Assembly (NCBI GenBank): GCA_050179755.1
Contig: JBFXEV010000001.1
Span: forward strand, 1,449,994 to 1,513,993
Direction: 5' to 3'
DNA length: 64,000 bases
Source of the DNA: Candidatus Babeliales bacterium
GTDB lineage: Bacteria; Babelota; Babeliae; Babelales; JBFXEV01
Part shown: positions 26,590-59,292 of the stretch, piece after piece
Position numbering within the stretch: the stretch's first letter is position 1
Layout: the number at the start of each line of letters is the position of its first letter
Notes under the pieces: model-generated
What the model was told of the DNA's origin: nothing
What the model saw: the letters and a program-made list of their open reading frames with translations, nothing else
Databases searched by the model: none
Position numbers and translations under genes: made by a program

Positions 26590-29500
26590 TCACTTTGCGC
26601 CAGTTATGCTTTTTTGGAAAGTAGCCTCTGGCACCACCATATAATACTGAATATTGGCCTTTTGCAATGAATGCGTAATCTTACTAACAGCTTTTATTAT
26701 GTCGTGTGATCGCTGCGGATTAGTTGTTTTACATGCCTGAGCGTCTTCATGAAGGCGGGATACTACCAGACTAATTGCATTACCTATAAAACCACAATAC
26801 GATTTCATATTTTTTACATTAGTTAGAAGCAAAAACAATGGTTCATAATGCTGCAATAAAAGCGGGTAATCACTGCCGTTGATGCAATGCATTGTTGCTA
26901 TCATGAGGCGCCATTCAACCGAATGAGACTGATAAAAATTATGCTGCTTCATACAATCAATTAATTGTTCAAACACTTTATTAGCCTGTTCTCTCTGTTC
27001 AAGTTTTTGCGTCAATAAACAGTCAAGCATAAACTTTATTAAGCGCATACCAAAAGTTTGAACAGTACCAATTGCAATATCTTTGCTAAATTGTTTTGCA
27101 ACAGTAGCTTCTATGCCACGCTCTATATGCTCAAGGGCTTTTAAAACATTAGAATCTTTGCTAATATGCACAAAAGCCATTTCAAGATGTGCAAGTGCAC
27201 TTAACCTACCCCCATCTGCTATCACTCTATCAAATAACTTTATTGCTTCATCATATTTTTTTTGCACCGCTTTCAAACCTCCAAGTGCTTGCATAGCAGC
27301 AATATGGCCATTTTTCGCTTTATGCTCTAAAAACAAAATAAGATCATCTGGATACATATAACCGCCAGCGCAAAGTTGTGATAGCTCTAGATAAAGATCA
27401 TCTGACGCATTATGAGTGCGTTGTATTAGTTCAAATTTATAGGCGATCGCTTTTTTAAAATCACCGTCCTCACGCGCAAAAGAAACTAAACGCTTAAGCG
27501 CACAAGTACTTCTATCTTTTAAGCTTAAAGCAAGTTTTTTTGACCGTTTCCTATCAGGGATTACTTCTTTCCCACATGGCAACGTGCTACCACCATATAA
27601 TCTGAGTAATAATTCTCCTGCAGCGGCTTCTTGCTCGGCAATACCTTCAAGTGCTTTAAGCGCTGCACTGAACATTTGATCGCTCATCTGCGCATTGCAA
27701 TATAATCTATCTTTCCACCAATGATAAATCCCGGTGCTATAACCAGAATCTTTAGCTTTATCGCCATAGCTCATTACAGCAGCTAAGTCCTCATTAGATG
27801 CATCCGCGCCCCCATAGTGCGCAGAACACCAGAGCATCATTATACACGCTGCACGGCCATTATTCGTGGTATCTGCAAGACGCTTAATATACTCAATATG
27901 TTTAGTAATGACATCATAAAAACCGCTTGCTTGTAAATCGCTCAGAGTAAGCTCGTGAAAAGACATACATCTAATAATGGCCTCGAGAGCGTCATTCATC
28001 TCTTTTTTATTTTTGCTCAATAGATTTTTTTCTACAAAATTATCAAGTGCCGGCACACACCCATTGAAGGCTAATATGCGTACCGATTGAAGCGCTAATG
28101 ACCGTAATTTATCACTATTAATACCTGGTATCGTGCCCGCATTAGTATGTTCCAAAGTTGGTTGCAACTCATGAAACACAACTGCCAGCGCTTCTCTGTT
28201 ACCTTGAACGTAAGGAATATATATAGTTTGATCAAACAAAAACAAGGATTCAAAGTTTCTTTCAAATTGTGCAACATGCCGCGCTTGCTCAGGCTCACTT
28301 GTTGCAGCCTCACCACTACACTTAAGAGCCTGTTGCAAATGCCTTCGTTTTGATTCCCTATCAGCTTGAAGAGCTTTATCATGCTCTGCTTCATAACTTA
28401 ACATTTTGCTCAGCAAAAATTGTGCCTGCGCACTACCTTGAGCTGCTGCTGCATCCAGGGTTCGCATCAAAAGCGCATCTTTGCAAATGGCCTGCGCTTT
28501 TTCACTTGCCATATCTTCAAAAACTACATCAATAAGGCAAAGATTCTTCAAAAATTCTTCTGTGGCCAGCGTTGGCTCTTTTACCAGCGTTCTAAAAGTC
28601 ACGCAAGCGCCTTGCTCATTTTGAAATTCACCCCCATTAAGCACGCGCCACTTCTTCATTTCCTCAGTTTCTTCTTCCTTTTTTACTACTTCTGTTGATG
28701 CTACAATGCCCAATGTACGTAATGCAACAACTAGTTCATCATAATGAGTGGCAGCTTCAGTTTTATAATCTGCATCTGCATCAACAAGATCAAGTAAGGG
28801 AAGTACTTGCAATACAAAGGGTAAGCCATGCGATTCTATATTTTCTAAATGCGTAATATCATGTACAAGCAATAAGCAAAGATCCGCGGCGAAAAATAAG
28901 TTATTGCCGCATAAGTGAACTTCAGGTGTTTTACAAAATATTTCAAGTAATTCATACACACCATGTTTGCCATCACTCAATTCAATGGCTTCTTTAAAAC
29001 ACTCAATTGCCTGCGCAGTTGATTCAGGATAACGTGCATGCAAAGTACCTAACGCTCGTAATGCAGACGGTAATTTAACTTTCGCTTTTTGCTTTATAAA
29101 TTCATATATTTCTTCTACTTGAGCAGATGAACAAAGAGGTGAATCTATCAATCGCGCCAATTGCGCACAAGATTCTTCACAGCCTGCTGATACAGCTTCT
29201 TGCAAAAGCGTCACAGCGTTACGCACGTGCATCTCTTCATGTGCGCGATCATTGCTTGCTTTATCAAGTTCTTCTTGCGCAAGAATACGCTTTGTTTCTT
29301 TAAACTCCTTCAATTTTTGCGCAAGATAATAAGCTGTTTTCCTATCTTGACCTAGAGAATAACCACAAGCAAACGTCCTTTCAGAACCATCAAAATAATG
29401 CTGTGCAAGGATAACGCCTGCGTAAGAATCGCCCATGTTATATGCACGTAATAATCTTTTCATATGCGCTTCAAATTCTTGTTTACTCATCGGTTTTAGT

Positions 29501-32073
29501 TTGCGCGGAACATCCACCGCGTTAAGCACTATTGCTCGCATGCAATTGGGGTGATCTAACTGAGCACCTTTTTCTAAAGCTGCCTCGGATTCTTCTTCTC
29601 GATCTTCATATAATAGGTATCTACTTAAATAAAAATACGCGCTTGAAAGCGTTGCTTTACATAATCTCTGTAAATCCGCCAACTCTTTATGTGCGCAAGA
29701 AAGATCATATGCTTGTTGCGCATACTGTACAGCTGTTTGCAAATGTGCTTCTTGCGTATCAGTTTGATCAGAAAGTAATTTGCACGGCGTGAGAACATGC
29801 ACCATATGAATCATACATTTAATAAAAGCAAGTTGTGTTTGTGCCCGTAGTGAATAATCAGCTCCATTCAACGAGAAAATACGAGTAAGAGTCGTAGGCT
29901 CTTTAAATACACTTAAAATACGCTCCCACGTTGCAATTGGTTCAGTATCATAATCAAATTTTAAACATTCAATACAGAGCGTAGTAGTTAAGTGCAGTGC
30001 TCGCTGATACCCTTGAATTGAACTCGAAGAGCTCAGAAACAAACGCGCACCCCAATTAATCGCTCTTATGTCGCCTGCTCCTGTTGCCAAACCCATACCA
30101 TACTCAACAAATCTTATTAAAAGATCTCTTTCTTGCACTGGTAGCGATAGAGATTCAAGCTCTATAAATTTATCAACAGCCTCAGTATATTTTTTTTGGT
30201 CGATAAAACTCAGAATCCCGCGATAAAGCACCAGCGCCTTGCAAAAAGGCTCAGCCTCTTTAATACCGCCTTTAAAAGCTAACATTGCATTTTTGAATGA
30301 CTGTTCCAATAAATCACGTTGCGCCACGGGAATATTTTGTTGCTCTTGGCCTGTATAGGCTAAACGAAACAACAACCTGCTCAAAAGATATTTTGCTTTG
30401 GGATCATTTTGTTGCGTACTTAATTTTGTGAGTGCATCCGATATGCACTGACATTTGTCTTTTTGAGTAAATACATCTGCGGATGCTTCCAAAAATCGAG
30501 TTGCAATTTCGCAACAATACGCTGCAGTTTCTGCGGTTAGCGCATCGCCATCTTTTTTAATACGCTCTTGAACGTTCCATATGCAAGCATCTAATTGGCC
30601 ATCCCGCGCAAGATGTTCCAGCAAGTCTTTTGCTCGCTCACCAATCAAACGCTCCACATAAGATTCCTGCCGATTAGCAACCAGAAGCTCACCGCATTTT
30701 TTGATAACCAATGCCAAATTGCCCTGATGATAACTATCAATAATATCCGCAAAACTACTGATTGCTTGCATCAGTTCTTTTTCTATACACGTTTGCGTAT
30801 TACCCGTTTGCGCACATTTTTTAAGGTCTTCAAAAGCCATTTTGGCATCGGGCGCTAGTAAAAAGCTGGTCATTCGTCGCAGTAATTCAATGCTTGTCAG
30901 ATGCGCCCAAATACAGCAGGCAAGTGTATTATTATTTTTAACCATGCCTGCAACAAGATCTTGAATCCCAAATTCAGCGAACGCATGCTTTACCGCATCT
31001 GTTTCTGAAGCTCGTTGTTCATGGAGAATAGCAACAATAGCTTGCAAACCTTTTGTTCTCTCTCTCTTATCACTATTTTTTAAATCCTGTGCTACCAAAT
31101 AAGCACGCGCTCTTAACGCGCCATTCTGACCAATTCGTTCAAGTACCGCATGAGCAAGTTGTTTTACCTGCACAAGAGAATTATCTTGCGAGCTTTGAGT
31201 AAGTAATCCTAAAAGATTTGTTATTGTTTCTTGATCATAGGTTCTTTTACATGCTTCAACACCCTGCATGTAAACAGAAACGGCTTCAACCAGGGGTCTA
31301 AACTCCGGATGCACGTCAAGAGCCGTAAAATATTTTTGACATCGCTCAAATTGAGCACTTTGACTATCGAGCGTTTTTTCAAGGACTGCTCGCTTGCACG
31401 CTTCTTGAAGCAGGCGATATTGCGCATCAACAGAACCTTCTTGGGCCAACTGTTCCAGTAAAGGCATATAATGTACATCCACAAGCATCGTACGCTCTAA
31501 ATGCGCTAAATCTTTAAAGGAGGGATAATAGGAAACCAGTTTTTGCAAAGCTTGTAATTGATCATAGGCAAGACAATGTTGACCTTCAAGCATAAATCGA
31601 GCAAATGAAGCTGCATGTTCATAAGGGACTTCATGTGGCTTATACAACACCGCACGTTCTGTGGCTTTAAAAAATTCAATTGCTTCTTCTTTATTGCCAT
31701 CTTCCATCGCCAATGCACCAAGCGCATACAGTGATCGCGCATCACGATACAAACTTTTGCGTGTAATGACTTTACCATCTTTAATATCTTGCCGCAGCAA
31801 TGCAACTGGCTTTGCAAGTTCTTCTAATGCACCATTAACATCTTCACCTAAAAATGCAGACTTAAACTTTACTTCATGCAGTGCATCAAGATAACTTGTG
31901 CCGCTATGCATGCCATATTTTGGAAAAGGTCGCTGAACATTAGTAGTAAGTTGTGGCAAAACCCTATAAAACGCATCACGGTGCTGCACCGTAGCGTCTG
32001 TTTGCTGATCCATACCAAAACTATTATTACATAGTACCAAGAGAAGTGTTAAATACCAAGATGTGTTGTTCAT
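26590..32073 (-). CDS. Giant secreted alpha-helical repeat protein (Sel1/TPR-like), 1827 aa
   Basis: Signal peptide SFG/MD; recurring LAQEGSVDAQYRL, AAAQGSAQAQFLL, AKNGHIAAMQALG Sel1-like motifs. Confidence 0.75.
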   Translation of the reverse strand: MNNTSWYLTLLLVLCNNSFGMDQQTDATVQHRDAFYRVLPQLTTNVQRPFPKYGMHSGTSYLDALHEVKFKSAFLGEDVNGALEELAKPVALLRQDIKDGKVITRKSLYRDARSLYALGALAMEDGNKEEAIEFFKATERAVLYKPHEVPYEHAASFARFMLEGQHCLAYDQLQALQKLVSYYPSFKDLAHLERTMLVDVHYMPLLEQLAQEGSVDAQYRLLQEACKRAVLEKTLDSQSAQFERCQKYFTALDVHPEFRPLVEAVSVYMQGVEACKRTYDQETITNLLGLLTQSSQDNSLVQVKQLAHAVLERIGQNGALRARAYLVAQDLKNSDKRERTKGLQAIVAILHEQRASETDAVKHAFAEFGIQDLVAGMVKNNNTLACCIWAHLTSIELLRRMTSFLLAPDAKMAFEDLKKCAQTGNTQTCIEKELMQAISSFADIIDSYHQGNLALVIKKCGELLVANRQESYVERLIGERAKDLLEHLARDGQLDACIWNVQERIKKDGDALTAETAAYCCEIATRFLEASADVFTQKDKCQCISDALTKLSTQQNDPKAKYLLSRLLFRLAYTGQEQQNIPVAQRDLLEQSFKNAMLAFKGGIKEAEPFCKALVLYRGILSFIDQKKYTEAVDKFIELESLSLPVQERDLLIRFVEYGMGLATGAGDIRAINWGARLFLSSSSSIQGYQRALHLTTTLCIECLKFDYDTEPIATWERILSVFKEPTTLTRIFSLNGADYSLRAQTQLAFIKCMIHMVHVLTPCKLLSDQTDTQEAHLQTAVQYAQQAYDLSCAHKELADLQRLCKATLSSAYFYLSRYLLYEDREEESEAALEKGAQLDHPNCMRAIVLNAVDVPRKLKPMSKQEFEAHMKRLLRAYNMGDSYAGVILAQHYFDGSERTFACGYSLGQDRKTAYYLAQKLKEFKETKRILAQEELDKASNDRAHEEMHVRNAVTLLQEAVSAGCEESCAQLARLIDSPLCSSAQVEEIYEFIKQKAKVKLPSALRALGTLHARYPESTAQAIECFKEAIELSDGKHGVYELLEIFCKTPEVHLCGNNLFFAADLCLLLVHDITHLENIESHGLPFVLQVLPLLDLVDADADYKTEAATHYDELVVALRTLGIVASTEVVKKEEETEEMKKWRVLNGGEFQNEQGACVTFRTLVKEPTLATEEFLKNLCLIDVVFEDMASEKAQAICKDALLMRTLDAAAAQGSAQAQFLLSKMLSYEAEHDKALQADRESKRRHLQQALKCSGEAATSEPEQARHVAQFERNFESLFLFDQTIYIPYVQGNREALAVVFHELQPTLEHTNAGTIPGINSDKLRSLALQSVRILAFNGCVPALDNFVEKNLLSKNKKEMNDALEAIIRCMSFHELTLSDLQASGFYDVITKHIEYIKRLADTTNNGRAACIMMLWCSAHYGGADASNEDLAAVMSYGDKAKDSGYSTGIYHWWKDRLYCNAQMSDQMFSAALKALEGIAEQEAAAGELLLRLYGGSTLPCGKEVIPDRKRSKKLALSLKDRSTCALKRLVSFAREDGDFKKAIAYKFELIQRTHNASDDLYLELSQLCAGGYMYPDDLILFLEHKAKNGHIAAMQALGGLKAVQKKYDEAIKLFDRVIADGGRLSALAHLEMAFVHISKDSNVLKALEHIERGIEATVAKQFSKDIAIGTVQTFGMRLIKFMLDCLLTQKLEQREQANKVFEQLIDCMKQHNFYQSHSVEWRLMIATMHCINGSDYPLLLQHYEPLFLLLTNVKNMKSYCGFIGNAISLVVSRLHEDAQACKTTNPQRSHDIIKAVSKITHSLQKANIQYYMVVPEATFQKSITGAK

Positions 32074-32105: not shown

Positions 32106-33269
32106 TTAGCGACCTACTAACATAAAAAGTGCTTGCACAAATTGTTCAACTTGTGCCATAGTATTACCATAATAAAAACTTACACGCACTGCGCCAGCAA
32201 TGCCCCATTTGCGCCACATTGGTTGCAAGCAAAAATCTCCTGCGCGCACACAAATATTTTTCGTATCAAGAAATGCCGCAATGTCATGAGGATGAAAGCC
32301 ATCAATGTTAAAACTGACCAAATGACCGTGCTGTGCAAGTTCTTGGTGGGGTCCATATATATGAACGCCAGGGATCTTTTTAAGGCCTTCAAGTGTTGCA
32401 CGGCACAACGATGCTTCAAGTTGCTGCTGCACACTACGATCTGTTGATTCTATAAGCGTTATTGCTGCACCCAAGCCAATCACTTGCGCAATGGGTGGCG
32501 TTCCGGCTTCAAACTTGCGTGGTGCGGGCAAATACGTTGCGCTGTGCCAATCAGCACGGTATACCATGCCACCACCAAGTTCATAGGGTGGCGTTTCATC
32601 ATGCAATTCTTTTTTAATATAAAGTATACCAACACCTGTAGGCCCCAGCATTTTATGCGCTGAAAACACTAAAAAGTCACATTGTAGCTTTTGTACGTTT
32701 ATTTGCTGATGTGGCACCGATTGGCATGCATCAATCAGCATTTTAGCACCAACACGCTGAGCATGCTTGGTAATTTGCCCTATATCATTGCGCGTACCCA
32801 AGCCGTTAGAAACATGTACCACCGCAATTAATTTAGTACGCTCAGTAACGAGAGTTTCAAGCGCTTTATATTCAAGCGTGCCATCAGATAAAATGGGTAT
32901 AAATTTTAGAATCGCACCCGTACGCTCAGCAACACGCTGCCAAGGGAGCAAATTCGAGTGATGCTCCATTTCTGTCAATAAAATCTCATCGCCCTTTTTA
33001 AGATGTGCCATTGCCCACGTGCTAGCTACTAAATTAATTGATTCAGTAGCTCCCTGTGTAAACACAATTTCAGCAACATGTCGTGCATGCAAAAACCGCG
33101 CTATCTGCGCGCGCACGCCTTCGTAGCGCGCGGTTGCTTGCTCGGCAAGTTGATAAATACCACGATGCACCGGCGCATATTCATGCAGATAAAAGTGGGA
33201 AATGGCATCCACCACCGGTTTTGGCGTTGGGCTAGATGCTGCATTATCAAAATAAATAGAGTGTTTCAT
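32106..33269 (-). CDS. sufS: SufS-type cysteine desulfurase
   Basis: YFDNAAS, VHRG, MEHHSN, SAHKMLGPTG (PLP Lys), FEAGTP, VRAGDFC. Confidence 0.93.
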   Translation of the reverse strand: MKHSIYFDNAASSPTPKPVVDAISHFYLHEYAPVHRGIYQLAEQATARYEGVRAQIARFLHARHVAEIVFTQGATESINLVASTWAMAHLKKGDEILLTEMEHHSNLLPWQRVAERTGAILKFIPILSDGTLEYKALETLVTERTKLIAVVHVSNGLGTRNDIGQITKHAQRVGAKMLIDACQSVPHQQINVQKLQCDFLVFSAHKMLGPTGVGILYIKKELHDETPPYELGGGMVYRADWHSATYLPAPRKFEAGTPPIAQVIGLGAAITLIESTDRSVQQQLEASLCRATLEGLKKIPGVHIYGPHQELAQHGHLVSFNIDGFHPHDIAAFLDTKNICVRAGDFCLQPMWRKWGIAGAVRVSFYYGNTMAQVEQFVQALFMLVGR

Positions 33270-36200
33270 TTTTTCTTTTTATCGGTAAATAACGTCATTT
33301 TTAATTTAATATCTGAGCCTAGTACTAATGTATTGAGTCGCTTCATTTGCAGATTACTTTCTGCTATTTGCGCGCGTTCTGAAGGATCCAACCCTTGTAA
33401 TACACTTGTATGTTTTGCCAATAATAATTTAAGAGCATTTGTTATATAATATACATCGCCTTCATGAGGCTGTATTTTGTGGAACTCAAAAACCCGCTCA
33501 AACGTATCTACTATTTTTTTAAAATCAAAAGTACTCATTGCACATTGATTAATTATGTGAATGCAAAGGAATTCAACCGATTCATAACCATCTGTAATAA
33601 ATTCTTCTCCATATCTTACCAACGTATCCATTGCCCTACTCACCTGTATTTTAAGCTTTTCATGACGTTGTGATTGGGCAAATTTTTCAAGTTCAAGCAA
33701 TCGATGGGTACATTGGTTAACAACATTTGCAACAGTTTGTATCTCAAACCGCATTTCCTTTATATGGTTCATACATATTGCAAGATATGTTAATGCGCGT
33801 TCTATATCAAGCCCTGCAAATTGAGGATTCAAATAAATTTCTACCAATTCCATACTTGCCTGCGCAAAACCATCTGCCAAAAGATCTGTACACCAGGCTA
33901 TAGCTTTTTCATATTCTTGACGCGCTACCCACACACCACACAAAGCACGCAGCATGGTGACTTTGCCCTTTTTAGATTCAACTTGTGCGTATTCTTCTAG
34001 TTTTTTCGGAAATCGTTTATATTCCACACAAAATTTCAACATATCATCAAGCGTAAATAAACCAATCTGATACAGCCTAAACGCATAATCAAAAAATGCA
34101 TCCAAGTCATTTTCTTCTTGAGCAAGAGTAGCAAGCGTCATTAATGCAGCGCCACTATTATTTTTCCATCTGAGCGCTAATTCTTTTGCACGCGCCATGT
34201 CTTTACTAACCCTAAATCTACAAGGTAACACCATGCCATCTCTATACATTTTTATCACAAAATGAATCACTCCGTAGCTAGGACTATCTGTAAGACCGTG
34301 ATTGCGCACATAACATTCAAGCTGCGCAATGAGTTCAGCACACTGCTTTGCTGATAATGTGGAGTCTCTTAAAAGATACGTCATATGCAATATCGGTTGT
34401 GCTTCAATGCAACCTTGCCGCACCGATTGCTCAAGGTAAACCAACGAATATCTTTGATTATTATTTTTATCTAGTTTTTTTGCTTTATGTTCCATCCAAC
34501 ATGCCACAATAAAAGAAGCATGGCCGTTGCCTGTAGTTGCAATTTTGTTAATATCTTCAATATGAGAATCCAAACACGCTTCCACACCGCTACTTTCCCA
34601 TTCTTCTTCGCGCATTTGTGATAGCGCATGGCAGCCTCTAAAGACTACTTGCACTGATTCTTGTTGCACTTCTGGCACAACATCTTTAAATTGCGTTGCA
34701 AGCACTAATTTCATTGCTTGCACGCACCCACAAGAGGCCAAATTGCGAATGCAATGCGCCGCTTCTTGTTTAATACTCATTATTTCTTGTTCTGGTAAAT
34801 TACATACAAGTAAGACTTCAAGAGTTTTATTTATAACTCCCAAACCACCATTCAAAGATTCTTGATCAAACGCTACTTGTGGTATTAATACGGTTCTATA
34901 ATAGTGATATAATTCATAATAACTTGCAATAAGTTGATTCTTATAATTTTCATTCTTTACATCGGCCGTTAGTGCTCGCGAAGCATAGTGAATTGCTTGT
35001 AAAAAATCATCACAGCGTTGTTGTTGCGCTTCGGGTTGTGCTGATCCATTCTTAGCTTTTTTTAAATAAAATAAACTAAGCGTATGCTGCGCATATGGAT
35101 TACTTTCTGCAAAATCCTGCATACGAGAAAATGCATTTGGATCAGTTTCCATAGCTTGTGCAATATCAACAGTCATCGATAAAGCAGTAGCTTCAAGTGC
35201 GGCCGGGCTTTCTGCTGCTGCTTGCACACTTGTTGTAATCTCAATACCAAGGCGCGCTAATTTTGTAATAATTTCTTCTCGCAACGTATCTGCCACAGCT
35301 TTATCATCCTGAGCTCCCTGATAGCCCAAAAGCGCACCCAGCACATTACCTATCACCTGCGATTGTTCCATAGGAGCACCTCCATCTCGTGCGCCTAGTT
35401 CAATCATGGCAAGGCAATGTTGTGCTGCTTTGCACGCGTTGCGTCTACAATATAAATTCGCAAGCTCCATATGGCCTAAACGACCGTCACTATAGCGTAT
35501 TGCATCTTCATAACTTTGAATTGCATATTCAATACGTCTTTGGTCTCGATCTGCAAGAAATATGCCAGCAAGAGCACATAACGCTTCCGGTATATGTTCT
35601 GCCGCTTTTTCTACTATAAAATCGTTTGCTATTTGGGCAACTTCTTGCGTAATCCATTCAGATAATACTATTTCTTCTAAATGGCGATATGCATGTTTTT
35701 GCCCATCACGTGCTGATTGCATTAAAAGCGTTACCGCACGAGAAAGATCAACTCTTCTCCCTTTATTTTTTGGATTTTGCACCACTTTATAAAATTCTAA
35801 AAATCCTAAAATGCGCGCCGTTTGGGGATATACGTCACCCAGTGCAACTGCTAGTTCAAGTGCTCGCTTTAAATCTTTTTCAATATGATTACCACACGCA
35901 AAACGAGTCAAGCGGCCATCATAATAATGTTCTGCTAAAATTGCACCAGCTTGCTTATCACCCAATTCATAGGCACGTTCAAGCATGAGAACATGAGCAT
36001 CGAATGTTTGCTTATCTAAGCAAACAGCAGCTTCTCGAGGTTGTTCTAACGCTAGCATTGCACATGCACGCATACAGGTAGGGTATTCCAAACCTGCGCT
36101 TTCAGCTAACAACGATTTCGCTTTTTCTATTTGGCCATTGCGCAAATACGCTTGACTGCGCACATAATTTATCTTATCTAATAATTTCCAAGCTCTCACA

Positions 36201-38761
36201 GCCCTTGGAGCAGGAACACCATCTTGAAAAGCTTTTTTACAATAAGCAGTCGCTTTTTCAAGCAACTGAGTTTCAGTACTTTGATTATCGTCAATAAAGC
36301 GACAGGGCACCAATGCTTGCACCACATAACAATGTGCTAATAAATAAGCTATAGGATTATGCAAACCTTTATATTTACTGTTTTCTAATGTTTTTTCAAT
36401 TTTGGCAACAATAGAAAATTGCCTGAAAGGTTCAAATGATGTTTTAAAATCACGTATTTGAGAATAATCTACACCAAGAAAAGCTTCAAACAGTTCTGTA
36501 CATATATGAACAGCATGATCAACTTTTTGTTTGTCATCTGAACATAACAAATCTGCTATATACCAAGGCCCTGCAATTTGATGATTCGCTTGCACATAGT
36601 GCATCATCTGATATTTTGCAAAAGCCTGCACTAATTTTCTTTCAGCAGATGGCAATTGAACCGTCAATAAATCCAATAATTGTTTTACTATAACATCAGC
36701 TTTTTTTGGAGCATCAGCTTGTTCAAGTAATGCCAAAATACCACGATACAACATCACTGCTCTAGTGAATTCCTGTACTTGCTTTTTTTCAGACCCTTGC
36801 TGTGCTGCATTTGGATCTTGGTTACTTTTTATAACTTCACCTGCCAATTTCACTACATCATCTAAAAGACTTCTATTCTCTACAGCCAACCCAGTTTGTT
36901 CACACCCTTCATGATATAATCTAAACAAAAGCCTACTTAATAAATATTTGGCTTGTGCATTGTTACTCCGCCTTGCAATATCATCGAGCGCCGTGCGTAT
37001 GCGCAAACAGGTATCATCTGCTGCACTGGGCGTTCGTTGTGCCAAATAAAGTTCACCTATTTGTATACCATATGCGATCGTTTCTTCTGAAAGCACTTCT
37101 TGTTCTGTATGCATGCGCTGCACTTTAACACAGCAAGCATCAACCTGTTTTTGTTCAACTAGTCTTTCAAGCAGTTGCTCGGCACGATCACGCATTGCAC
37201 AAGTTAATTGATCACCACCAAAAACTAAATTAACAATATCAATAAGTTGGCGCGCCGCTGTTGGTTTTTGTGCATAAAAATCAAAGACCGCTTGAGCAAA
37301 ACTTTGTATAATTTGCAAGGTATTTTTAAATTCGCTTTCTACCATCAAACCACTTTTTGCATAGCGCAGTATACGCTTATATGCTTCTCTTTGCTGAGTA
37401 TCATCTACCAATGCTTCATCGCTCAGCGCATTTTTGCAGGCCCATTCTGCCCAAAATGTGCATACAGTGGGCTGATTTTGCTCGGCCATGCGAACAAGGC
37501 TATCAAGCAGGCCAAATTCTTTGAGTTGTTGCTCCATACATCTATCATTTTGCTGCATGCATGTACGGACCAGAGCTTCTGCTTGTACAACAGCTTGCGC
37601 TTTTCTAGTCTTATTTTTGGAAGATAGTTGCTGTTGGACTCCAAAGCATGTTGCGCGTAAATCGCCAATTGTTGCAAGTTTATCCAGCAACTGCCTACCC
37701 AATTGCTGCACGTGCAAAATTACGGGTACATTAGAAGAGCTTGCTAATAACTCAATTAAACAAGCTGATGCAAGATCAAGGTTTTGTTCTTCGTATGCAC
37801 CTATAGCTGCCATATAACAGGTAAGTGCTTTGCCTAAATCACTATGCGTTGGATCTTGTACTAACGATGCACAATATGCCGCGAGCGGCCTTATGGCAGC
37901 CAGTTGCTTTTTTATTTTCTTTTCAAGTGCTTGTTCAAACAATGCGTTCACCATAGCCTGCTGCGCTTCAACATCACCTGCATCTGCAAGCTGTTTAATT
38001 GCAGGCAAATGCCCATCAGCTGCAAGTGCCGTACACAATAGGTGCGCTACAGGCTGCCAACAGGGATATAATAGTGCTTTATTTTGTAACAAGAGTAAAT
38101 TACTAAACGCTTGTTGATATTGCTCTTGCGACCAATAACGTGTGCATTGCGAAGCATAGAAAATAGGTTCTTCATGAGATCTATATTCATTGCATGTAAG
38201 TACTGCTTGACGTAATGCATTTTCAGCTTCAAAAACCTGACTTGCCTCAAGCAATTTTATGCCACGTGCAAAATCAATAAGAGGGAAATATTGCGTGCCC
38301 TTTTTTGTTACTAAAGAACCTGCAATTAATTCCGTACGTTGTGACGCTAAAGGCTCTGCAGCTTTTTCTAAAGCGATTATAGGATCATCACTTTGCAATG
38401 CTGCCTGGAATTTACATTCAAAGAGCGCATCATGAACACTTGTACCACTATGCATGCCATAACAAGGAATAGGCCGTTGTATAACCGTAGTAAGCTGCGG
38501 TAATAAAGGAGCCACTTCACTACCAAACAAAGAAGGGGTCATTTTTGTGCCAAAGGATCCTTCGACTCGCTTCGCTTGCTCCCAGCCTGCGCATAAAGGC
38601 CGCCCATCCTGAGCAGGTCGAAGGACGGCGGGCATAGCAGTATGAGCGGACTCAGGCAACATTGCAAGAACATCACTTGTGCATGTTAATAAGCCCAAAG
38701 TAAGACATGTTACATATGTAAAATGTGACATACTATAAGCATATTTCTTTATACCAGCCAC
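33266..38761 (-). CDS. Giant secreted alpha-helical repeat protein (Sel1/TPR-like), 1831 aa, paralog of 26590-32073
   Basis: Signal peptide VLA/ML; collinear shared blocks LPQLTT..QRP.P.YGMHSGTS, AKYLLSRLLFRL, CMRA, FACG. Confidence 0.75.
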   Translation of the reverse strand: MAGIKKYAYSMSHFTYVTCLTLGLLTCTSDVLAMLPESAHTAMPAVLRPAQDGRPLCAGWEQAKRVEGSFGTKMTPSLFGSEVAPLLPQLTTVIQRPIPCYGMHSGTSVHDALFECKFQAALQSDDPIIALEKAAEPLASQRTELIAGSLVTKKGTQYFPLIDFARGIKLLEASQVFEAENALRQAVLTCNEYRSHEEPIFYASQCTRYWSQEQYQQAFSNLLLLQNKALLYPCWQPVAHLLCTALAADGHLPAIKQLADAGDVEAQQAMVNALFEQALEKKIKKQLAAIRPLAAYCASLVQDPTHSDLGKALTCYMAAIGAYEEQNLDLASACLIELLASSSNVPVILHVQQLGRQLLDKLATIGDLRATCFGVQQQLSSKNKTRKAQAVVQAEALVRTCMQQNDRCMEQQLKEFGLLDSLVRMAEQNQPTVCTFWAEWACKNALSDEALVDDTQQREAYKRILRYAKSGLMVESEFKNTLQIIQSFAQAVFDFYAQKPTAARQLIDIVNLVFGGDQLTCAMRDRAEQLLERLVEQKQVDACCVKVQRMHTEQEVLSEETIAYGIQIGELYLAQRTPSAADDTCLRIRTALDDIARRSNNAQAKYLLSRLLFRLYHEGCEQTGLAVENRSLLDDVVKLAGEVIKSNQDPNAAQQGSEKKQVQEFTRAVMLYRGILALLEQADAPKKADVIVKQLLDLLTVQLPSAERKLVQAFAKYQMMHYVQANHQIAGPWYIADLLCSDDKQKVDHAVHICTELFEAFLGVDYSQIRDFKTSFEPFRQFSIVAKIEKTLENSKYKGLHNPIAYLLAHCYVVQALVPCRFIDDNQSTETQLLEKATAYCKKAFQDGVPAPRAVRAWKLLDKINYVRSQAYLRNGQIEKAKSLLAESAGLEYPTCMRACAMLALEQPREAAVCLDKQTFDAHVLMLERAYELGDKQAGAILAEHYYDGRLTRFACGNHIEKDLKRALELAVALGDVYPQTARILGFLEFYKVVQNPKNKGRRVDLSRAVTLLMQSARDGQKHAYRHLEEIVLSEWITQEVAQIANDFIVEKAAEHIPEALCALAGIFLADRDQRRIEYAIQSYEDAIRYSDGRLGHMELANLYCRRNACKAAQHCLAMIELGARDGGAPMEQSQVIGNVLGALLGYQGAQDDKAVADTLREEIITKLARLGIEITTSVQAAAESPAALEATALSMTVDIAQAMETDPNAFSRMQDFAESNPYAQHTLSLFYLKKAKNGSAQPEAQQQRCDDFLQAIHYASRALTADVKNENYKNQLIASYYELYHYYRTVLIPQVAFDQESLNGGLGVINKTLEVLLVCNLPEQEIMSIKQEAAHCIRNLASCGCVQAMKLVLATQFKDVVPEVQQESVQVVFRGCHALSQMREEEWESSGVEACLDSHIEDINKIATTGNGHASFIVACWMEHKAKKLDKNNNQRYSLVYLEQSVRQGCIEAQPILHMTYLLRDSTLSAKQCAELIAQLECYVRNHGLTDSPSYGVIHFVIKMYRDGMVLPCRFRVSKDMARAKELALRWKNNSGAALMTLATLAQEENDLDAFFDYAFRLYQIGLFTLDDMLKFCVEYKRFPKKLEEYAQVESKKGKVTMLRALCGVWVARQEYEKAIAWCTDLLADGFAQASMELVEIYLNPQFAGLDIERALTYLAICMNHIKEMRFEIQTVANVVNQCTHRLLELEKFAQSQRHEKLKIQVSRAMDTLVRYGEEFITDGYESVEFLCIHIINQCAMSTFDFKKIVDTFERVFEFHKIQPHEGDVYYITNALKLLLAKHTSVLQGLDPSERAQIAESNLQMKRLNTLVLGSDIKLKMTLFTDKKKK
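38559..38649. repeat. Composite family A palindromic repeat inside a coding sequence
   Basis: CCTTCGACTCGCTTCGC...CCGCCCATCCTGAGC..GTCGAAGGACGGCGGGC...ATGAGCGG; near-identical core at 59139-59258. Confidence 0.85.
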
Positions 38762-38769
38762 AGTATCCT

Positions 38770-41700
38770 TTATTGCGCTCTACGTAATTTATTTTGTAAA
38801 AGAGTAAGCACCTGTTGTTGTCTCTTTATTATGTTTTTATCTTCTTCTGAACAAGAACTTACTTGCAACGCTTCTAAAGCCGTATTGGTAGTCTGTACTA
38901 TAGAATACAATAAATTAGAAATATTTGCTTCTTTAGAATTTTTAGCAACATTTGCGCATATAAAAACAAGCTTGGTGGCCATATGAGCTCGTACTGCTAA
39001 AGTTTGGCCATATTGACCGTTCAGCCAATAGATAACTTGATCTTGCGCTACTTTCATTATTCTTTCTTTACACACTAAATCATCGACTGCTTGAACATTT
39101 TCTGCAGCTTTTGTTAAAATGGTGACCACATTATCAAAGTTGGCATTTTTTGTTCCTAACCATAATAACGTTAGCTTAACACTAAAATAACTATGATACG
39201 CAAGAGCTCGTTTCATCACATCAATATCCTCACTCTGCATTATTACTACGTGCAGTAATGCAAGCATTTTTTCAAGTTGTTCAAGTGAAGGTTGCTTCAT
39301 ATTATTTGCTAATGGAACAACCTCTCCTGCACCCGCTGCTTGTATTAGATTGACAATTGTTTGTACGCGATCGACTTCTTGCCGAACGAATAATCTATCA
39401 AAAGCGTCAAACGCTCTTTGGCAATGTTCTACCACTTCAGTAAGCTGCAAGAAACCTTGTTGATCCAACAATGCTCGTGCTTTATATGATTCATGTATAC
39501 ATTCCATATCCGCGCCTTTATAAGTGGCAATTTCTTGGGATAATTGAGCATAGTGTTTATCTGCAAATAACACAGAAAGCAATAATCTATGCGCTTCCTC
39601 TGAACTATCTTTAATACGTTCCAGCAGCTCCAGACCGCGTTCTCGCAACTTTTTTGAAAGTTTATTTTTAAAAGTACGGTTTGTACTGTAATTAATGTAC
39701 ATTCGTGCAACTTCTAAAATCTCCTCAACTGTTGCTTGCTCACGCAGAACATACTGCGTTACTTCATGAAAAATTTCTTGTGACTTATCTTGAAGCACAA
39801 GTATATCAATATACATGCAATGAATTGCAGGCTCAGTATCTTTATATGATTTAATCAGATCTCTTGCCTTTGCAAGCAATAAGTTTCTCTCATGGCCCAT
39901 CACTGCCCGAGCCTGAGCCATATAAATATTTGCAAGTTTTGCGCGATTATTTGGGAAATCTTTAGAATCATCTATAATCAATTTTTGCAAGTAATCAACT
40001 GCCTTTGCAAGATCTTCTTTCATAAGATGAATTTTAAAACCAGCATAACAGTCTGCCATAAACTGCAATGAAGGGCGATGCTTGCCTGAACGTGATAATT
40101 GCTCCATCAAAGCAACCCCCTCTTGCCGCAATGCACTTTGCCCACTATCCATAAGAACCCGAGCAAATTCATATTTCACATCAATAGTAGGATTCAATTC
40201 CAACGCTCGTTTATAAAGCAATCGTACTTGTTCCATGTTTACTTCTTTATCAAGAGCGCGGGCTTGCGTTACTTTAACCAATGCAAGTTGTTTTTGGCGC
40301 TCAGCAGTTTTGCCGCCCTGTTCTTGCAATGCTCTTGTTAATAAGGGATCCGCTTCAATCGTTAGATCTAAAAAATCTTGATTCATCCCTGCCTCTCTAT
40401 AGCAACAACCCACCATTAAAAGATGTTCTCCTGATTGAGCAGTTCGAGCAGCTTTTAATATGGTAGGAAAGAGTGCCCTATATTTCCCGTGATGCAAATT
40501 TTTTAAATGCATATCTTTGGTGCTACGCAATGCCTGATCCACTAGTGAAAATAATTTGCATACATAATCAGCATTTTGCTGCGTAAGATGTTCTTGTTGC
40601 ACCCAATGTTCAATTACTCCAAGCAAAGCATCCAAATAAATAATACGATGCTGCTCTGGCAAACTATCTATAGCTATTTCTTTAAGCAACAAATCATCTT
40701 TAACCGGATCATCAAACGCATCATTACCAGCTTGCACAGGATATAAAATAAATTGTAAAGCCTTCTTTTGATGTGCTAATGCGGTTCTTTCTTTAAGCAA
40801 AAATCCACGGCCAAGATGAGCCCTTAATCCAAATACGTTGATCAATACATTTTGAATGCTTATATCTTTCCTAAAACGCTCCATATAGCGCAAAACGCCA
40901 GACGTATTAAGAAATTCTAAATAGAAAGTATCAATCGTATGCTTATTACTCACAAAATATTTTTCGAGACTATGCACTGTACCTGCCAATGCAGCAATGT
41001 ATTTTTTATACTCGTCATCGTTATATACTTCAATTTCAAAAGCAGCTTCTTTACCACATGCAAGAGCATGTTGATACATAACAACACCATTAGATGAATG
41101 AACTTTACTCATATCTTGTGAAAGTACGTGTAAATTCCACTCAAGTGCACTTAGCTTAAAACAACCTGCAAGTCTATACAAAGAATTAGGAGGAGCATTT
41201 CTAAATTTTTCTAAAGCCATAGTATAAAACACAAATGCAAGATCAGGTTCAATTTCTCGTAGTTCGTCTCCAACTCGTTCTGCCGCAAATGGATTGCCCA
41301 ATCGTGCCGCGTGTTTAAGACACTCTAGCCCTTCAAAGTATAATTCATCATCTTCCTCTACTATTAATTTTTTACCCTTCAAATACAGATCTTGCACCTT
41401 TTGATAATCAACTTGTACTGCAACTGATTGATCAGCAGCTGCTTCCATTTCTAGGGCACTTGAAACTAAAACGCTCTCTTGATCAGCCAGGCACGGGCCA
41501 AGAAGCACCTGCGCTTGAATATCTTCTTGAGACCTCTGTTTAGGCTCATATGCTGCTAAGTTTTTTTGAATCTCTTCAAACAATGCTTTGCTTGGTTCAT
41601 ATGATCCTACAACAGATTTTTCAGCGTAAGCAAGAGCTCGTTTTAATTCATGAGAAGGATCTGCAGCATTCTCTTCTTGATCACTAATTGCTAAAAAGAA

Positions 41701-42366
41701 ATGATGTTTTGCCAGAACATACTGCGCATGCGCATTATTATTTGCCTGCGCAAGCCGTTCTATATCATCTAAAATCTCACTATTTTCATTAAATACCAGG
41801 GAATGCTCTCTATAGTTTTTTTCCTTTTGATCAGTTTCTTTAAGTGTAATGAGATCCTCAAAGCGTTCAAGCCCTTGATCAACATTGGACAATAAGGGAC
41901 TGTTAATTAATTGCTTCACCAGATAAAATTTAGAAAGTGGATGATCCTTTTCGTCAGCAAGAATCCTTACACGGCCAATTGCTTCTTGCCGCATTCTTAG
42001 TAAAAGAGGGGTGTCTCTAGGACCTTTTATAACGTCATCAAGATATTTAAAAACGAGATCTGACTCTTTCAATGCAATGTCTGCCTGTAAACCCATAATA
42101 AAAGCTTTAAATGAAGCAAGTTCTGCAGTAGAACCATTTGGATTATCATTAAGTGCTCGTTTTGTTGCTCGCAAAGCAATTTTTAAATGCTTATCTAAGG
42201 CCGGACCTGTTGTAATTAAAACATTTTCTAAAGCCGAGCGCGCCGTCAGTAGATCTTTGCTCGGACTATGAGAATTAGGCACAACAAGCGCCTTACTTTT
42301 TTTCATACCATGTACTGGCAGCGTACACATCAAACATAACAAAGCTGGATAGAGCGATCTCATCAT
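38770..42366 (-). CDS. Large secreted Sel1/TPR-like repeat protein, about 1200 aa
   Basis: Signal peptide VHG/MK; HAARLGNPFAAERVG, AHAQYVLAK, LYKRALELNP repeats; alternative start 42381. Confidence 0.7.
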   Translation of the reverse strand: MMRSLYPALLCLMCTLPVHGMKKSKALVVPNSHSPSKDLLTARSALENVLITTGPALDKHLKIALRATKRALNDNPNGSTAELASFKAFIMGLQADIALKESDLVFKYLDDVIKGPRDTPLLLRMRQEAIGRVRILADEKDHPLSKFYLVKQLINSPLLSNVDQGLERFEDLITLKETDQKEKNYREHSLVFNENSEILDDIERLAQANNNAHAQYVLAKHHFFLAISDQEENAADPSHELKRALAYAEKSVVGSYEPSKALFEEIQKNLAAYEPKQRSQEDIQAQVLLGPCLADQESVLVSSALEMEAAADQSVAVQVDYQKVQDLYLKGKKLIVEEDDELYFEGLECLKHAARLGNPFAAERVGDELREIEPDLAFVFYTMALEKFRNAPPNSLYRLAGCFKLSALEWNLHVLSQDMSKVHSSNGVVMYQHALACGKEAAFEIEVYNDDEYKKYIAALAGTVHSLEKYFVSNKHTIDTFYLEFLNTSGVLRYMERFRKDISIQNVLINVFGLRAHLGRGFLLKERTALAHQKKALQFILYPVQAGNDAFDDPVKDDLLLKEIAIDSLPEQHRIIYLDALLGVIEHWVQQEHLTQQNADYVCKLFSLVDQALRSTKDMHLKNLHHGKYRALFPTILKAARTAQSGEHLLMVGCCYREAGMNQDFLDLTIEADPLLTRALQEQGGKTAERQKQLALVKVTQARALDKEVNMEQVRLLYKRALELNPTIDVKYEFARVLMDSGQSALRQEGVALMEQLSRSGKHRPSLQFMADCYAGFKIHLMKEDLAKAVDYLQKLIIDDSKDFPNNRAKLANIYMAQARAVMGHERNLLLAKARDLIKSYKDTEPAIHCMYIDILVLQDKSQEIFHEVTQYVLREQATVEEILEVARMYINYSTNRTFKNKLSKKLRERGLELLERIKDSSEEAHRLLLSVLFADKHYAQLSQEIATYKGADMECIHESYKARALLDQQGFLQLTEVVEHCQRAFDAFDRLFVRQEVDRVQTIVNLIQAAGAGEVVPLANNMKQPSLEQLEKMLALLHVVIMQSEDIDVMKRALAYHSYFSVKLTLLWLGTKNANFDNVVTILTKAAENVQAVDDLVCKERIMKVAQDQVIYWLNGQYGQTLAVRAHMATKLVFICANVAKNSKEANISNLLYSIVQTTNTALEALQVSSCSEEDKNIIKRQQQVLTLLQNKLRRAQ

Positions 42367-42371
42367 GAACC

Positions 42372-43085
42372 TTACTGGCATATTAGTAATTCATGCGTAA
42401 TACGCGCAAACTGTTCTTGAGTCAAATTAAATTCATCACTAAAAAAACCCCTGATTAATAATTCTTTTGCTTTTTGTTCGTCTATACCGCGTGATTTCAG
42501 ATACACTACTTGATCGTCGTTAAAACTACTGGTGGCTGTACCATGTTTACATTGCACTGAATTAGTATGCACTTCTAAGCTTGGCATAGCTACTGCTCGC
42601 GCAGTATGTGAAAGCAATACATTTTTATTATAAAGTGCAGCATCAGTTCCGTGTGCACGTTGAGCAATGTTAATAATGCCATGATAGTTAAATAGCGCTT
42701 CGCCTGCCAAAGCACATTGCACCATGCTATAACTTTTTGTATGCGGAGCTTGATGATCTTGCACAAGAGTAATGTGATGTTGCATGGTACCATTTAGTGC
42801 ATAGCAACCGTGAATAGTTGCTTGTGCCCCTTCCTCTTCTAAAATAACTTCTATACTAATTTCACGCGCGCACGGACCTATTGCAATAAACGTGAGTTTG
42901 AGATTACCATCTCGTTTACACACAAAACGATATCTAGAAGAAGTATGCGCGCGAGCGGAATCTAACGTAAGCACATAGTCAAGGCGCTCACAATCACGCA
43001 CAATTATTTCTACCAATGGAACTTCCAAAAGGGAAGGCTCTAATTCGGTTGCGTTATCCAATTGAATTCTCCATTTCAAGCGCAA
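42372..43085 (-). CDS. sufD: Fe-S cluster assembly protein SufD (short form; start uncertain)
   Basis: [22 protein letters not shown] motifs; follows sufB. Confidence 0.85.
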
Positions 43086-46079: not shown

Positions 46080-46364
46080 TTAACCACCAGTACAAAGATT
46101 ATATGTATCAGGAAATCCTTGCTGTTTCTTGCTAAATCTTTTTAAATGAGCCTCTATCATTAAGGGTTCATTTATGCGTTCAAAAAAAAATGTATCCGTT
46201 TTTTCAGGATCAAATTTTATTTTTTGTTCAATTTTATCAAATATGCAAAGTGCTTTTACTAACTTTTTTGTAACTCCTGTAGTTATTTTTTCATATGATT
46301 TTGTTTCTATCAAGTAGTTTACAGTTGTTGCATCCTCAAATACTTTATAAAAATCTATATTCAT
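46080..46364 (-). CDS. Putative immunity protein, copy 3 (94 aa)
   Basis: VKALCIFDK, FD.EKTD.FF, EP.MIEAHLK, FP..Y...TGG shared with copies 1 and 2. Confidence 0.7.
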   Translation of the reverse strand: MNIDFYKVFEDATTVNYLIETKSYEKITTGVTKKLVKALCIFDKIEQKIKFDPEKTDTFFFERINEPLMIEAHLKRFSKKQQGFPDTYNLCTGG

Positions 46365-46370
46365 TAATTT

Positions 46371-46424
46371 TCCTTTCCATAATCTATCCCATGCAACGGC
46401 AATTTCAACATCAGCAGGAAGGCG
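46371..46424 (-). pseudogene. Relic of a toxin C-terminal tip
   Basis: RLPADVEIAVAWDRLWKG aligns with RFDPNIEIAAAWNRLYKG of the 600-aa toxin. Confidence 0.6.
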
Positions 46425-46514
46425 TCCGTTTGTCGTCAAAAATTGAAAACATAATACACTAGGGTAAATTGTAGGCTTTTTTATAGCCAACACCCAAATT
46501 TTTGAGATAAAACA

Positions 46515-46802
46515 TTATCCCCCAGTAGCAATATGATACTCCTCTGGAAATCCATTTTGCTTTTTATCAATTTTTTTCAAATGAGCTTCTATCATTAAAG
46601 GTTCCCAAGAACGATCAACAAAAAAAGAATCTGTTTGTTCAGAATCAAAAGATATGGTTTTTGTATTTTTATCAAATATACAAAGTCCTTTAACTTTTAC
46701 CCATTTTATTTCCGGCATAAAACTTTGATCCCAATAATCTGTCTCAACCCAGTAGCACACCCTTGCTTCATCTTCTGAGGCTATATGTAAATCCAAAAAC
46801 AT
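46515..46802 (-). CDS. Putative immunity protein, copy 2 (95 aa)
   Basis: VKGLCIFDK...WEPLMIEAHLKK...FPEEYHIATGG. Confidence 0.7.
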   Translation of the reverse strand: MFLDLHIASEDEARVCYWVETDYWDQSFMPEIKWVKVKGLCIFDKNTKTISFDSEQTDSFFVDRSWEPLMIEAHLKKIDKKQNGFPEEYHIATGG

Positions 46803-58416: not shown

Positions 58417-59292
58417 TCACACAAGCTGCACATCATTGCCCAGCAACCAACCGGTGACACTACCATCGGTAACAAGATACCAAGTATCATGAATTGCACG
58501 AATCTCAACTTCTTGGCCTCTTTGCAAGGCGGCCTTCACTCGTGCTTGAGAATTTTTATTTACGAATACCGCTGTATCACGCAGAACAAAACCCATTAAG
58601 CGATTTTGCTCTGTATAGCGTACCATCAAAAGGGCTGCTACCACAAGTAGCAAAACGGACCAAGCCATAATAAATATCCAATTGCGCCGCTTATACCAGG
58701 TAACTAAGAATAGTCCCAACGCAAGCACCACAAAAAATACTAGTTGCCAAATTTTGAAAGGAATAAAACGCATATATAAATCAATACGTTTAAGAAAAGC
58801 GTATACTCTTGTTTCATGGAAAACTCCGCCATGCTCTTGCTGCACGCTAGCAACACGCTCTTGAAGCATAGTATAATCACGCAATGTAACAAAACGCTGC
58901 GCACGGCGCCAATTCACTAACGCTTCAGGAAATAATCCAAGCGCATATGCTGCATTACCTTTATTAATAAGTAGCTCTGGATTACGCGTTGAAATACTTT
59001 TATATAACTCATATGCTTTTTTAATATCACCTTGTTCATATAATTTATTTGCTTGCAGGTATCGTTCTTGAGCAGGAGGTTCACCAAATAACGATCCAAT
59101 AAAAACAATAGAAATAAATAGCACTATCAGCTCATAGACCCTTCGATTCATTCTACTTAGCTGAAGCTTGGTAGAACACTCCCAGCTTACGCATAAAGTC
59201 CGCTCATCCTGAGCGAGCATAGCGAGTTGAAGGACGGCGGGCGCGGCAGGGTGAGCGGGATATATTCTTCTTACCATAAACCAGTTCATCAT
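58417..59292 (-). CDS. BatE-like TPR/SH3 membrane protein, with in-frame repeat in its N-terminus
   Basis: TPR (NKGNAAYALG), 2 TM, C-terminal SH3-like domain (WYLV...GW); ATGA-coupled to batD; alternative start at 59151. Confidence 0.75.
   Translation of the reverse strand: MMNWFMVRRIYPAHPAAPAVLQLAMLAQDERTLCVSWECSTKLQLSRMNRRVYELIVLFISIVFIGSLFGEPPAQERYLQANKLYEQGDIKKAYELYKSISTRNPELLINKGNAAYALGLFPEALVNWRRAQRFVTLRDYTMLQERVASVQQEHGGVFHETRVYAFLKRIDLYMRFIPFKIWQLVFFVVLALGLFLVTWYKRRNWIFIMAWSVLLLVVAALLMVRYTEQNRLMGFVLRDTAVFVNKNSQARVKAALQRGQEVEIRAIHDTWYLVTDGSVTGWLLGNDVQLV
59139..59258. repeat. Composite family A palindromic repeat inside a coding sequence
   Basis: CCCTTCGA..CACTCCCAGCTTACGCATAAAGTCCGCTCATCCTGAGC..TTGAAGGACGGCGGGC..CAGGGTGAGCGG. 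Confidence 0.85.

Follow-up and report, generated by a model that had tools for sequence, protein, structure and literature searches.

A dispersed GC-rich repeat inserted in frame behind the signal peptide of a large secreted protein in a Candidatus Babeliales genome

When a dispersed repeat lies within the 5' coding part of a gene, does it become part of the protein, and how did it come to be there? This question is raised by one gene of a Candidatus Babeliales bacterium, whose genome (G000) is a single contig (C1) of 1.525 Mb with a GC content of 39.1%. We analyzed a stretch of 64,000 nucleotides (nt) of this contig, G000:C1:1449994-1513993, here called the window. The gene lies on the minus strand and encodes a large secreted helical-repeat protein. 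A sequence-only reading of the locus had proposed that a palindromic repeat of one family, family A, was inserted in frame just behind the signal peptide, in the manner of the Rickettsia palindromic elements (RPEs). Our results support an RPE-like insertion: the repeat is in frame, it is missing from the homologues, a related insertion lies in the middle of a RING-type gene, and 12 further loci carry inserts at the same junction; that the repeat is translated we infer.

The longest open reading frame (ORF) over the repeat, 33266..38761, encodes 1831 amino acids (aa) from a GTG (P0001). Read from the first ATG, at 38731, the protein has 1821 aa; the public gene call (P0002), which begins MSHFTY, uses this start, upstream of the repeat. 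The N-terminus of P0001 reads, in order, MSHFTYVTCLTLGLLTCTSDVLA-MLPE-SAHTAMPAVLRPAQDGRPLCAGWEQAKRVEG-SFGTK-MTPSLFGSEVAPL-LPQLTT, and the sequence around the repeat is ...VLAMLPE-SAHTAMPAVLRPAQDGRPLCAGWEQAKRVEG-SFGTKMTPSLFG.... MSHFTYVTCLTLGLLTCTSDVLA resembles a signal peptide; here and below, such calls were made from N-terminal hydrophobicity alone. The repeat (38558-38650) begins on a codon boundary and contains no stop codon in the frame of the gene. Its GC content is 0.62-0.65, compared to 0.28-0.47 in the flanks and 0.391 in the genome. Three sequencing runs, possible sources of this DNA, contain the identical filled form and no variant; a fourth run, from another study, contributed only two 151-nt pieces, one on each side, which leave the repeat uncovered. 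A look for RNA runs over the window found none listed. Pfam holds no family for P0001, and when residues 1-420 were compared to 5.8 billion proteins in a word-indexed search, P0001 itself was the sole match.

The 93 nt are a copy of a dispersed family. BLAST search of 38540-38670 against the genome gave 9 places at E<=0.001, the query included. Single-sequence nhmmer search of the genome gave 7 matches above inclusion, with E-values of 2e-9 and 1.6e-7 to other copies. One profile built from six copies identified three full-length copies (38558-38650, G000 286314-286400 and window 59172-59262; E 5e-21 to 2e-19), together with three partial copies and about 16 sites at which the core region stands alone. 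The core of the family is built as CCGCTCAT-CCTGAGCTTGTCGAAGG-A, and the family 21-mer is CATCCTGAGCTTGTCGAAGGA. Allowing four substitutions at most, the 21-nt core has 24 matches in the genome, a count made without shuffle control; the 17-nt core has 21 matches with one mismatch at most, and its reversed control has none. The smallest unit is a hairpin of ~35 nt, in which the arms CCGCTCAT and ATGAGCGG are placed around the 17-mer CCTGAGCTTGTCGAAGG; two-armed small copies fold well as single-stranded DNA (z -1.9 to -4.3). Family A is composite in nature: it contains the core, flanked by CCTTCGAC..CCCAGCCTGCGC and, on the opposite side, by CGGCGGGCGCGGCAGGATGAGCGGA.

The copy in P0001 is decayed. 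It carries two changes in the 21-nt core; in addition, CCGCTCAT is changed to CCGCCCAT and CAGGATGAGCGG to CAGTATGAGCGG. Although it retains the 9-nt inverted repeat (38558-38566 and 38617-38625), its fold is no better than those of shuffled sequences (z +0.52 as RNA, +0.47 as DNA and -0.30 with separate shuffles). The word palindromic, which the sequence-only reading applied to this copy, is thus suited to the family, which forms hairpins, and only weakly to the copy itself. The rest of its description, a family A copy that encodes a peptide just after the signal peptide, was borne out in coordinates, peptide and repeat status; the copy comprises 93 nt, or 31 whole codons.

Homologues of P0001 were found in 2 of the 41 related genomes searched (all small, 0.8-1.9 Mb), namely G000 itself and G001, a sister species of the same genus. 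The paralogue in the window, which shares 30% identity with P0001 and gives TPR matches in Pfam below the cut-off, reads MNNTSWYLTLLLVLCNNSFG-MDQQTDATVQHRDAFYRV-LPQLTT. The G001 orthologue reads MNKTTWLTLFLFVCACNIAFA-MDKKVVSKRWQEMAMV-LPDLVG, and the G001 paralogue is alike; in both G001 genes (L011 and L012) the signal peptide is followed by Met and then by the conserved LPxL segment, without the repeat. The order of upstream gene, this gene, one gene of ~400 aa and the paralogue is common to both species. All three homologues thus present the empty site that had been suggested as a check, with synteny kept. The difference in spacing reported earlier was also reproduced, the distance from Met to LPQLTT being 17 residues in the paralogue and 52 in P0001.

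How much of the N-terminus is extra could be judged from the spacing. In a four-way alignment, the three homologues are gapped by 37-39 columns opposite P0001 residues ~20-58. A 120-nt block begins at the Met behind the signal peptide and stops directly in front of the following Met. Without this block, the start and LPQLTT are 36 residues apart, compared to 37 in the G001 orthologue and 38 in the paralogue; taking out the 93 nt alone leaves 45. Since only removal of the former restores the spacing of the homologues, we think that the whole 120-nt block is the insertion, with the recognizable repeat as its middle. The Met of MTPSLFG, which comes next, is probably the ancestral Met at position +1 of the cleavage site. 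Identity to the homologues is low (30-35%) and the boundaries are therefore unreadable at the DNA level, which gives some footing to the idea that nothing was inserted, that is, that the segment is ancestral and was lost from the three other genes, or that its likeness to the family is a chance effect of high GC content. This is exceedingly improbable: loss would take three independent deletions, the similarity to other copies is significant at the single-sequence E-values given above, and the segment is a 62% GC island within a 39% GC gene.

Like P0001, several other genes carry members of the family. Among 26 sites checked (24 core matches and 2 without the strict core), 12 are spanned by an ORF that is 70 aa or longer, and 7 by one of 150 aa or more. 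We read four of these seven as true coding insertions, in P0001, in two ankyrin-repeat-like proteins of 309 and 601 aa and in one RING-type protein of 382 aa; one more, in a 182-aa ORF, is doubtful as a coding insertion. The remaining two, in ORFs of 275 and 291 aa, are read as 5' leaders, the Met and a hydrophobic segment coming after the repeat. The second copy of the window belongs to the latter: the longest ORF (58417..59292, minus strand) of the 291-aa gene carries it at the 5' end, no stop codon interrupts the frame within it, and the Met and the membrane segment come after it, so that it is probably leader DNA of a membrane-anchored protein gene. In the two ankyrin-like proteins, the modules directly follow the signal-peptide-like segment and Met, in the same SAHP... 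frame as in P0001.

The RING-type protein, which is secreted, is encoded at G000:C1:488397-489545 (L143:398-1543) and has 28 extra residues, APILRQAQDERQVNKASKQPQSIVQHPK, in the middle of the gene. The insert begins with the core hairpin, and the hairpin is well formed (z -2.3). The G001 orthologue, a 353-aa open frame with 51% identity, matches residues 2-249 and 278-382 in adjoining DNA. Since this insertion lies mid-gene, an alternative start cannot explain it.

The junction between signal peptide and mature part was used by another, related element, E0, of 64 nt. Five near-identical tandem paralogues at G000:C1:405328-412752 comprise two genes filled with E0 and three empty ones; over ~260 nt aligned at the 5' end, they differ mainly by the presence or absence of the block. 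The empty genes read ...GGAATGGA followed directly by AAGTCAA..., and the filled ones read ...ATGGA-TCCGACTTCGCC...GGAGCAACGGCGG-ATGGA-GCCAGTT.... Together with the second ATGGA, E0 amounts to 69 nt or 23 codons, read as MDPTSPLLCRDTNHAIAPEEQRR. Searched with nhmmer, G000 gave 9 matches to E0. In-frame placement, with a signal-peptide-like segment before E0 and Met behind it, was seen for 6 of them, which represent 5 independent loci; another one stands just 5' of a start codon, and two are variant copies. By DNA similarity, E0 has 11 matches in G000, 9 in G001 and 2 weak ones in G037, and none in the other 38 of the 41 genomes. All 7 loci examined of the 9 matches in G001 are in frame between a signal-peptide-like segment and Met, and 5 of the 7 were found by DNA similarity, not by frame. 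ATGGA stands on both sides of E0 at 8 sites, and singly at empty sites; at a few sites (ank309, orf203 and the site 5' of the RING gene) one base of it is changed. The last of these is a copy of E0 directly 5' of the start codon of the RING gene, beside ATGGA. Family A or core-hairpin modules are nested within the E0 copies of the 601-aa and 309-aa ankyrin-like genes. E0 has poor terminal inverted repeats (~9 of 13 positions by eye), and its fold has z-scores of -1.5 to -2.7.

The pentanucleotide corresponds to a recurrent end of export signals. Among 572 ORFs (at least 150 aa) whose N-terminus is hydrophobic, 113 have the motif [AGS]-Met-[DEQN] at residues 16-34, compared to 17 of 571 other ORFs and to 5 of the 572 at control positions 61-79. 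As ATGGA encodes Met-Asp or Met-Glu, these counts indicate that E0 adjoins the standard export-signal end of this lineage. The preference for the junction could reflect either targeting of ATGGA by E0 or selection that leaves copies at this site. Likewise, ATGGA on both sides of E0 fits a 5-bp target duplication as well as insertion 3' of a fixed pentanucleotide, as is the case for IS200/IS605 elements. In P0001 the block starts with ATG and another ATG follows it, and the ends of E0 are absent.

Examples of such signal ends in the window are found at 38663-38731, at 32014-32073 and at the start of 38770..42381. Cleavage there would give N-termini of Met-Glu, Met-Asp, Met-Gln or Met-Asn, which are those acetylated by eukaryotic NatB; that the motif mimics host N-termini is speculation. 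Our literature search found no description of [AGS]-Met-[DEQN] signal ends. In one cultivated member of the Dependentiae, signal peptides were reported on 44% of genes (Deeg et al. 2019, PMC6561590), and the parts of that paper available to us hold no mention of repeats, palindromes or cleavage sites.

The peptides encoded at the junction might also be taken for a functional, conserved N-terminal pro-region (MDPTSP...RDTNHAI..APEEQRR, followed by MD) that was spread by duplication or recombination, the P0001 segment being a divergent member. The peptide is conserved across unrelated proteins in both species and always begins with Met-Asp; a dibasic pair ends it at 11 of the 12 E0 loci and is usually followed directly by Met (ank309 has RRL-M, orf203 RR-V). 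However, these DNA modules are also found in intergenic DNA and in either orientation, it is the DNA that is conserved, hairpins included, the copy in P0001 has neither the MDPTSP nor the APEEQRR part, and the block by which near-identical paralogues mainly differ at the 5' end is bordered by ATGGA on each side, as if it had been inserted. We therefore consider a pro-region of this kind very unlikely. More speculatively, E0 with its nested modules, family A included, could be a mobile element that homes to ATGGA at the Ala/Met-Asp/Glu junction of ~100 secreted-protein genes and, with whole codons, an open frame and usually an Arg-Arg-Met end, acts as a translated mobile pro-peptide cassette. 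This proposal is a tentative one, and we do not lean on it. If it were true, the original N-terminus would be recreated behind a dibasic site, and the exported proteins of an intracellular bacterium would be diversified.

Returning to P0001, the repeat probably contributes 31 residues, or 40 together with its flanks, to the N-terminus of the protein that is exported. At the junction loci the inserts range from 23 to 53 codons and all are in frame, which argues that export signal and mature protein need to remain connected and that the inserts are thus read. For P0001 itself, translation could alternatively begin at ATG 38542 (MTPSLFG), in which case the repeat and the old signal-peptide codons would form a 5' leader of a gene that has lost export or is decaying. 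The sequence-only reading had named this start as the finding that would speak against it. That ATG stands in frame directly behind the block and corresponds by alignment length to the ancestral +1 Met, the P0001 copy is decayed, and the copies upstream of the 275-aa and 291-aa ORFs look like leaders, as described above. Yet such a start would cost the gene a signal peptide that is kept in 3 of 3 homologues, and the signal-peptide-like ORF formed by the 23 upstream codons is preserved in frame. There is no Shine-Dalgarno-like sequence directly upstream of ATG 38542, and one promoter and terminator scan found no promoter-like site in 38300-39000 and no terminator; the upstream gene, of 1203 aa, ends 38 nt before the P0001/P0002 gene. 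At twelve other loci, moreover, signal peptide, insert and mature part share one frame despite varied insert lengths. A start behind the repeat thus seems unlikely.

Several observations weigh against a translated insertion, or make the evidence for it less telling. All three frames of the repeat can be read through on the mRNA strand, and each of the three contains a stop on the opposite strand; only the length, with a one in three chance, and the orientation are therefore informative. E0 with ATGGA amounts to 69 nt by construction, so that it keeps the frame without selection, and the lengths of the nested modules may by nature be divisible by three, which weakens the argument from frame. 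The signal peptide of P0001 is only moderately hydrophobic, above the 1.6 cut-off and below the 2.0 cut-off. ATG 38542 directly adjoins the extra block and might act as a start codon. The 93 nt are flanked by no more than a 3-nt direct repeat (TCC) and, as the ends of E0 are absent as well, the exact boundaries and the mechanism of the insertion are uncertain. Finally, no transposase or nuclease could be tied to the family in the tests run, which are described below.

Weighing these points, we propose that the segment is one copy, now decayed, of a dispersed repeat that is modular, GC-rich and hairpin-forming, comparable to transposable elements of the miniature inverted-repeat type (MITEs) or repetitive extragenic palindromic (REP) sequences. 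It would have inserted into the 5' coding part of a large secreted-protein gene, at or near the junction between the signal peptide and the mature protein. With a whole number of codons and an open sense frame, the gene would have stayed intact and the repeat would be translated; it would be tolerated at the N-terminus because this stretch is unconstrained. The junction would be a hot spot in the genus, where E0 sits between the last residue of the signal peptide and Met-Asp/Glu, often with family A or hairpin modules nested inside. We infer that the family moves by transposition. If the inserts are translated, ankyrin- and RING-type proteins that are exported, and presumably exposed to the host, would gain new N-terminal segments from selfish DNA, which would be a direct way to novel proteins. 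The filled and empty tandem paralogues provide a ready test system.

Which enzyme could move such a repeat? Ssn proteins are GIY-YIG single-strand nucleases associated with NTS/SRM hairpin repeats (Chenal et al. 2025, PMC11893778). Our repeats share with the Ssn system small hairpin repeats spread over many phyla and a small GIY-YIG gene in the genome; they differ in that no match to the SRM pattern lies on them and the GIY-YIG gene is not flanked by the core. The SRM pattern has one match in the genome, compared to 3-7 in shuffled sequences, and none on the elements. The genome encodes one 80-aa single-domain GIY-YIG protein (at 562 kb), with homologues in 29 of the 41 relatives. The core is absent from 600 nt on each side of this gene, and no match to the 21-nt core lies near 562 kb. 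Co-occurrence gives no signal either, as homologues of the GIY-YIG gene are present in 14 of the 15 genomes that have the motif and in 15 of the 26 that lack it. On these tests the Ssn link was rejected.

Another candidate is the single IS200-like Y1 gene of the genome (143 aa; G000:C1:216970-217401, L004:973-1401:-; 63 bits in Pfam and 62 bits in NCBIfam). In G000 one family A copy lies within ~200 nt of its 5' side, on this side only; the G001 orthologue (G001:C1:1128822-1129250, L170) has the same gene order and no repeat beside it. At the motif positions, which we take to be those of IS608 and ISDra2 TnpA, the first His of HUH aligns to Leu (Leu-Val-His) and the C-terminal tail has no Tyr. 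With a degenerate HUH motif and no C-terminal Tyr, the protein looks domesticated or dead and is probably inactive. Y1 genes are found in 7 of 15 motif-positive relatives, compared to 13 of 26 motif-negative ones, and this link was rejected as well. The single-copy Y1 gene in conserved synteny, with an adjacent repeat copy in G000, recalls the REP system and its REP-associated tyrosine transposases (RAYTs); different from REP/RAYT, the repeat is one-sided, none lies beside the G001 orthologue, and the HUH and Tyr positions are not intact.

With MITEs and the palindrome-associated elements of the IS200/IS605 type, the repeats share small size, non-autonomy, hairpins and, for E0, ATGGA on both sides. 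They differ from them in the poor inverted repeats of E0 and in the lack of an autonomous partner with the same ends: no longer element with matching ends was found among the E0 or family A matches in the genome. One DDE fragment is present in addition to the Y1 gene, and neither is bounded by element ends on both sides. Rfam gave one match, which is below threshold and outside the repeat.

The 17-nt core is not confined to this genus. Within the order it is found in 15 of the 41 genomes, with a patchy distribution, and reversed controls gave 0 everywhere. The highest number is found in G023, with 117 copies, mostly as inverted pairs ~72 nt apart (e.g. L144:260-375), with the arms CCGCACAC/GTGTGCGG in place of CCGCTCAT/ATGAGCGG. 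In the genomes of 185,579 species, the exact 17-mer occurs at no fewer than 125 loci (L016-L140) of many phyla; the matches listed include Proteobacteria, Chloroflexota, Bacteroidota, Actinomycetota, candidate phyla and others. As ~70 chance matches are expected in 596 Gb, this count is weak evidence alone. Among the matches listed, however, the flank ccgttcgc/ccgttcgt recurs at many loci, or an inverted copy lies nearby (19 of 136), which points to a likely widespread related repeat across phyla. The argument is based on this recurring flank and on the counts within the order with their zero controls. No covarying stem was detected across phyla: at least 4 pairs beside the core were found in 8 of the 136 matches listed, and permutation gave 3.3 on average and 8 at most. 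Shared across phyla, the core would point to an undescribed DNA-protein partnership.

RPEs are short repeats that were inserted in frame in many genes (described in a review of MITEs, PMC10969869). Like RPEs, our repeats are short and dispersed in the small genome of a host-dependent type of bacterium, with in-frame copies that add a peptide without breaking the ORF and with empty sites in orthologues or paralogues. Different from RPEs, which are ~150 bp in length, they are shorter and modular, comprising the ~35-nt hairpin, the 64-nt E0 and composites of 93-150 nt; the bacteria belong to another phylum, the core 17-mer is common to many phyla, and one position, the signal-peptide/Met junction, is strongly preferred. 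The likeness supported by the comparison is thus one of behavior, with no claim that the repeats belong to an RPE sequence family.

To our knowledge, in-frame repeat insertions are textbook matter only for Rickettsia, and we know of no repeated use of one precise landing place by RPEs. RPE-like behavior would thus extend to an unrelated small-genome lineage, with one precise landing place reused in two species. In agreement with the earlier statement that no description of this family was known, searches with the peptide and DNA motif strings returned no relevant paper, no paper was found that contains the 17-mer CCTGAGCTTGTCGAAGG, and, judged by title or abstract among the papers listed, none deals with palindromic repeats in Dependentiae.

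Table 1. Positions, strands and supporting evidence of the features at the P0001 locus and of related features in the window
Feature	Position	Strand	Evidence
Gene of the 1821-aa secreted helical-repeat protein (P0001/P0002)	33266..38731	-	ORF and public gene call
Signal-peptide-like segment MSHFTYVTCLTLGLLTCTSDVLA	38663..38731	-	probable true start ATG 38731; same architecture in homologues
Whole extra block, MLPE + repeat + SFGTK, 120 nt = 40 codons	38543..38662	-	comparison with homologues
Family A repeat copy, 93 nt = 31 codons, read as SAHTAMPAVLRPAQDGRPLCAGWEQAKRVEG	38558..38650	-	comparison with other copies
Core motif CATCCTGAGCAGGTCGAAGGA, 2 mismatches to family CATCCTGAGCTTGTCGAAGGA	38605..38625	+	core search
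Inverted-repeat arm TCCTTCGAC, pairs with 38617-38625 (GTCGAAGGA)	38558..38566	+	sequence; seen in centroid fold
ATG of MTPSLFG, rival start codon	38540..38542	-	alignment length
Paralogue without the repeat, 1827 aa, empty site	26590..32073	-	homology and alignment
Second family A copy in the window	59140..59262	+	direct-repeat scan, profile search

Other repeats were noticed in the window. At 55630-56077, the direct-repeat families D2 and D4 adjoin the ends of apparent tRNA genes, and a sequence similar to this region lies upstream of the small GIY-YIG gene at 562 kb of G000. At 46177-46998, an 84-nt AT-rich unit (D1) is present in three diverged direct copies, with spacings of 435 and 303 nt.

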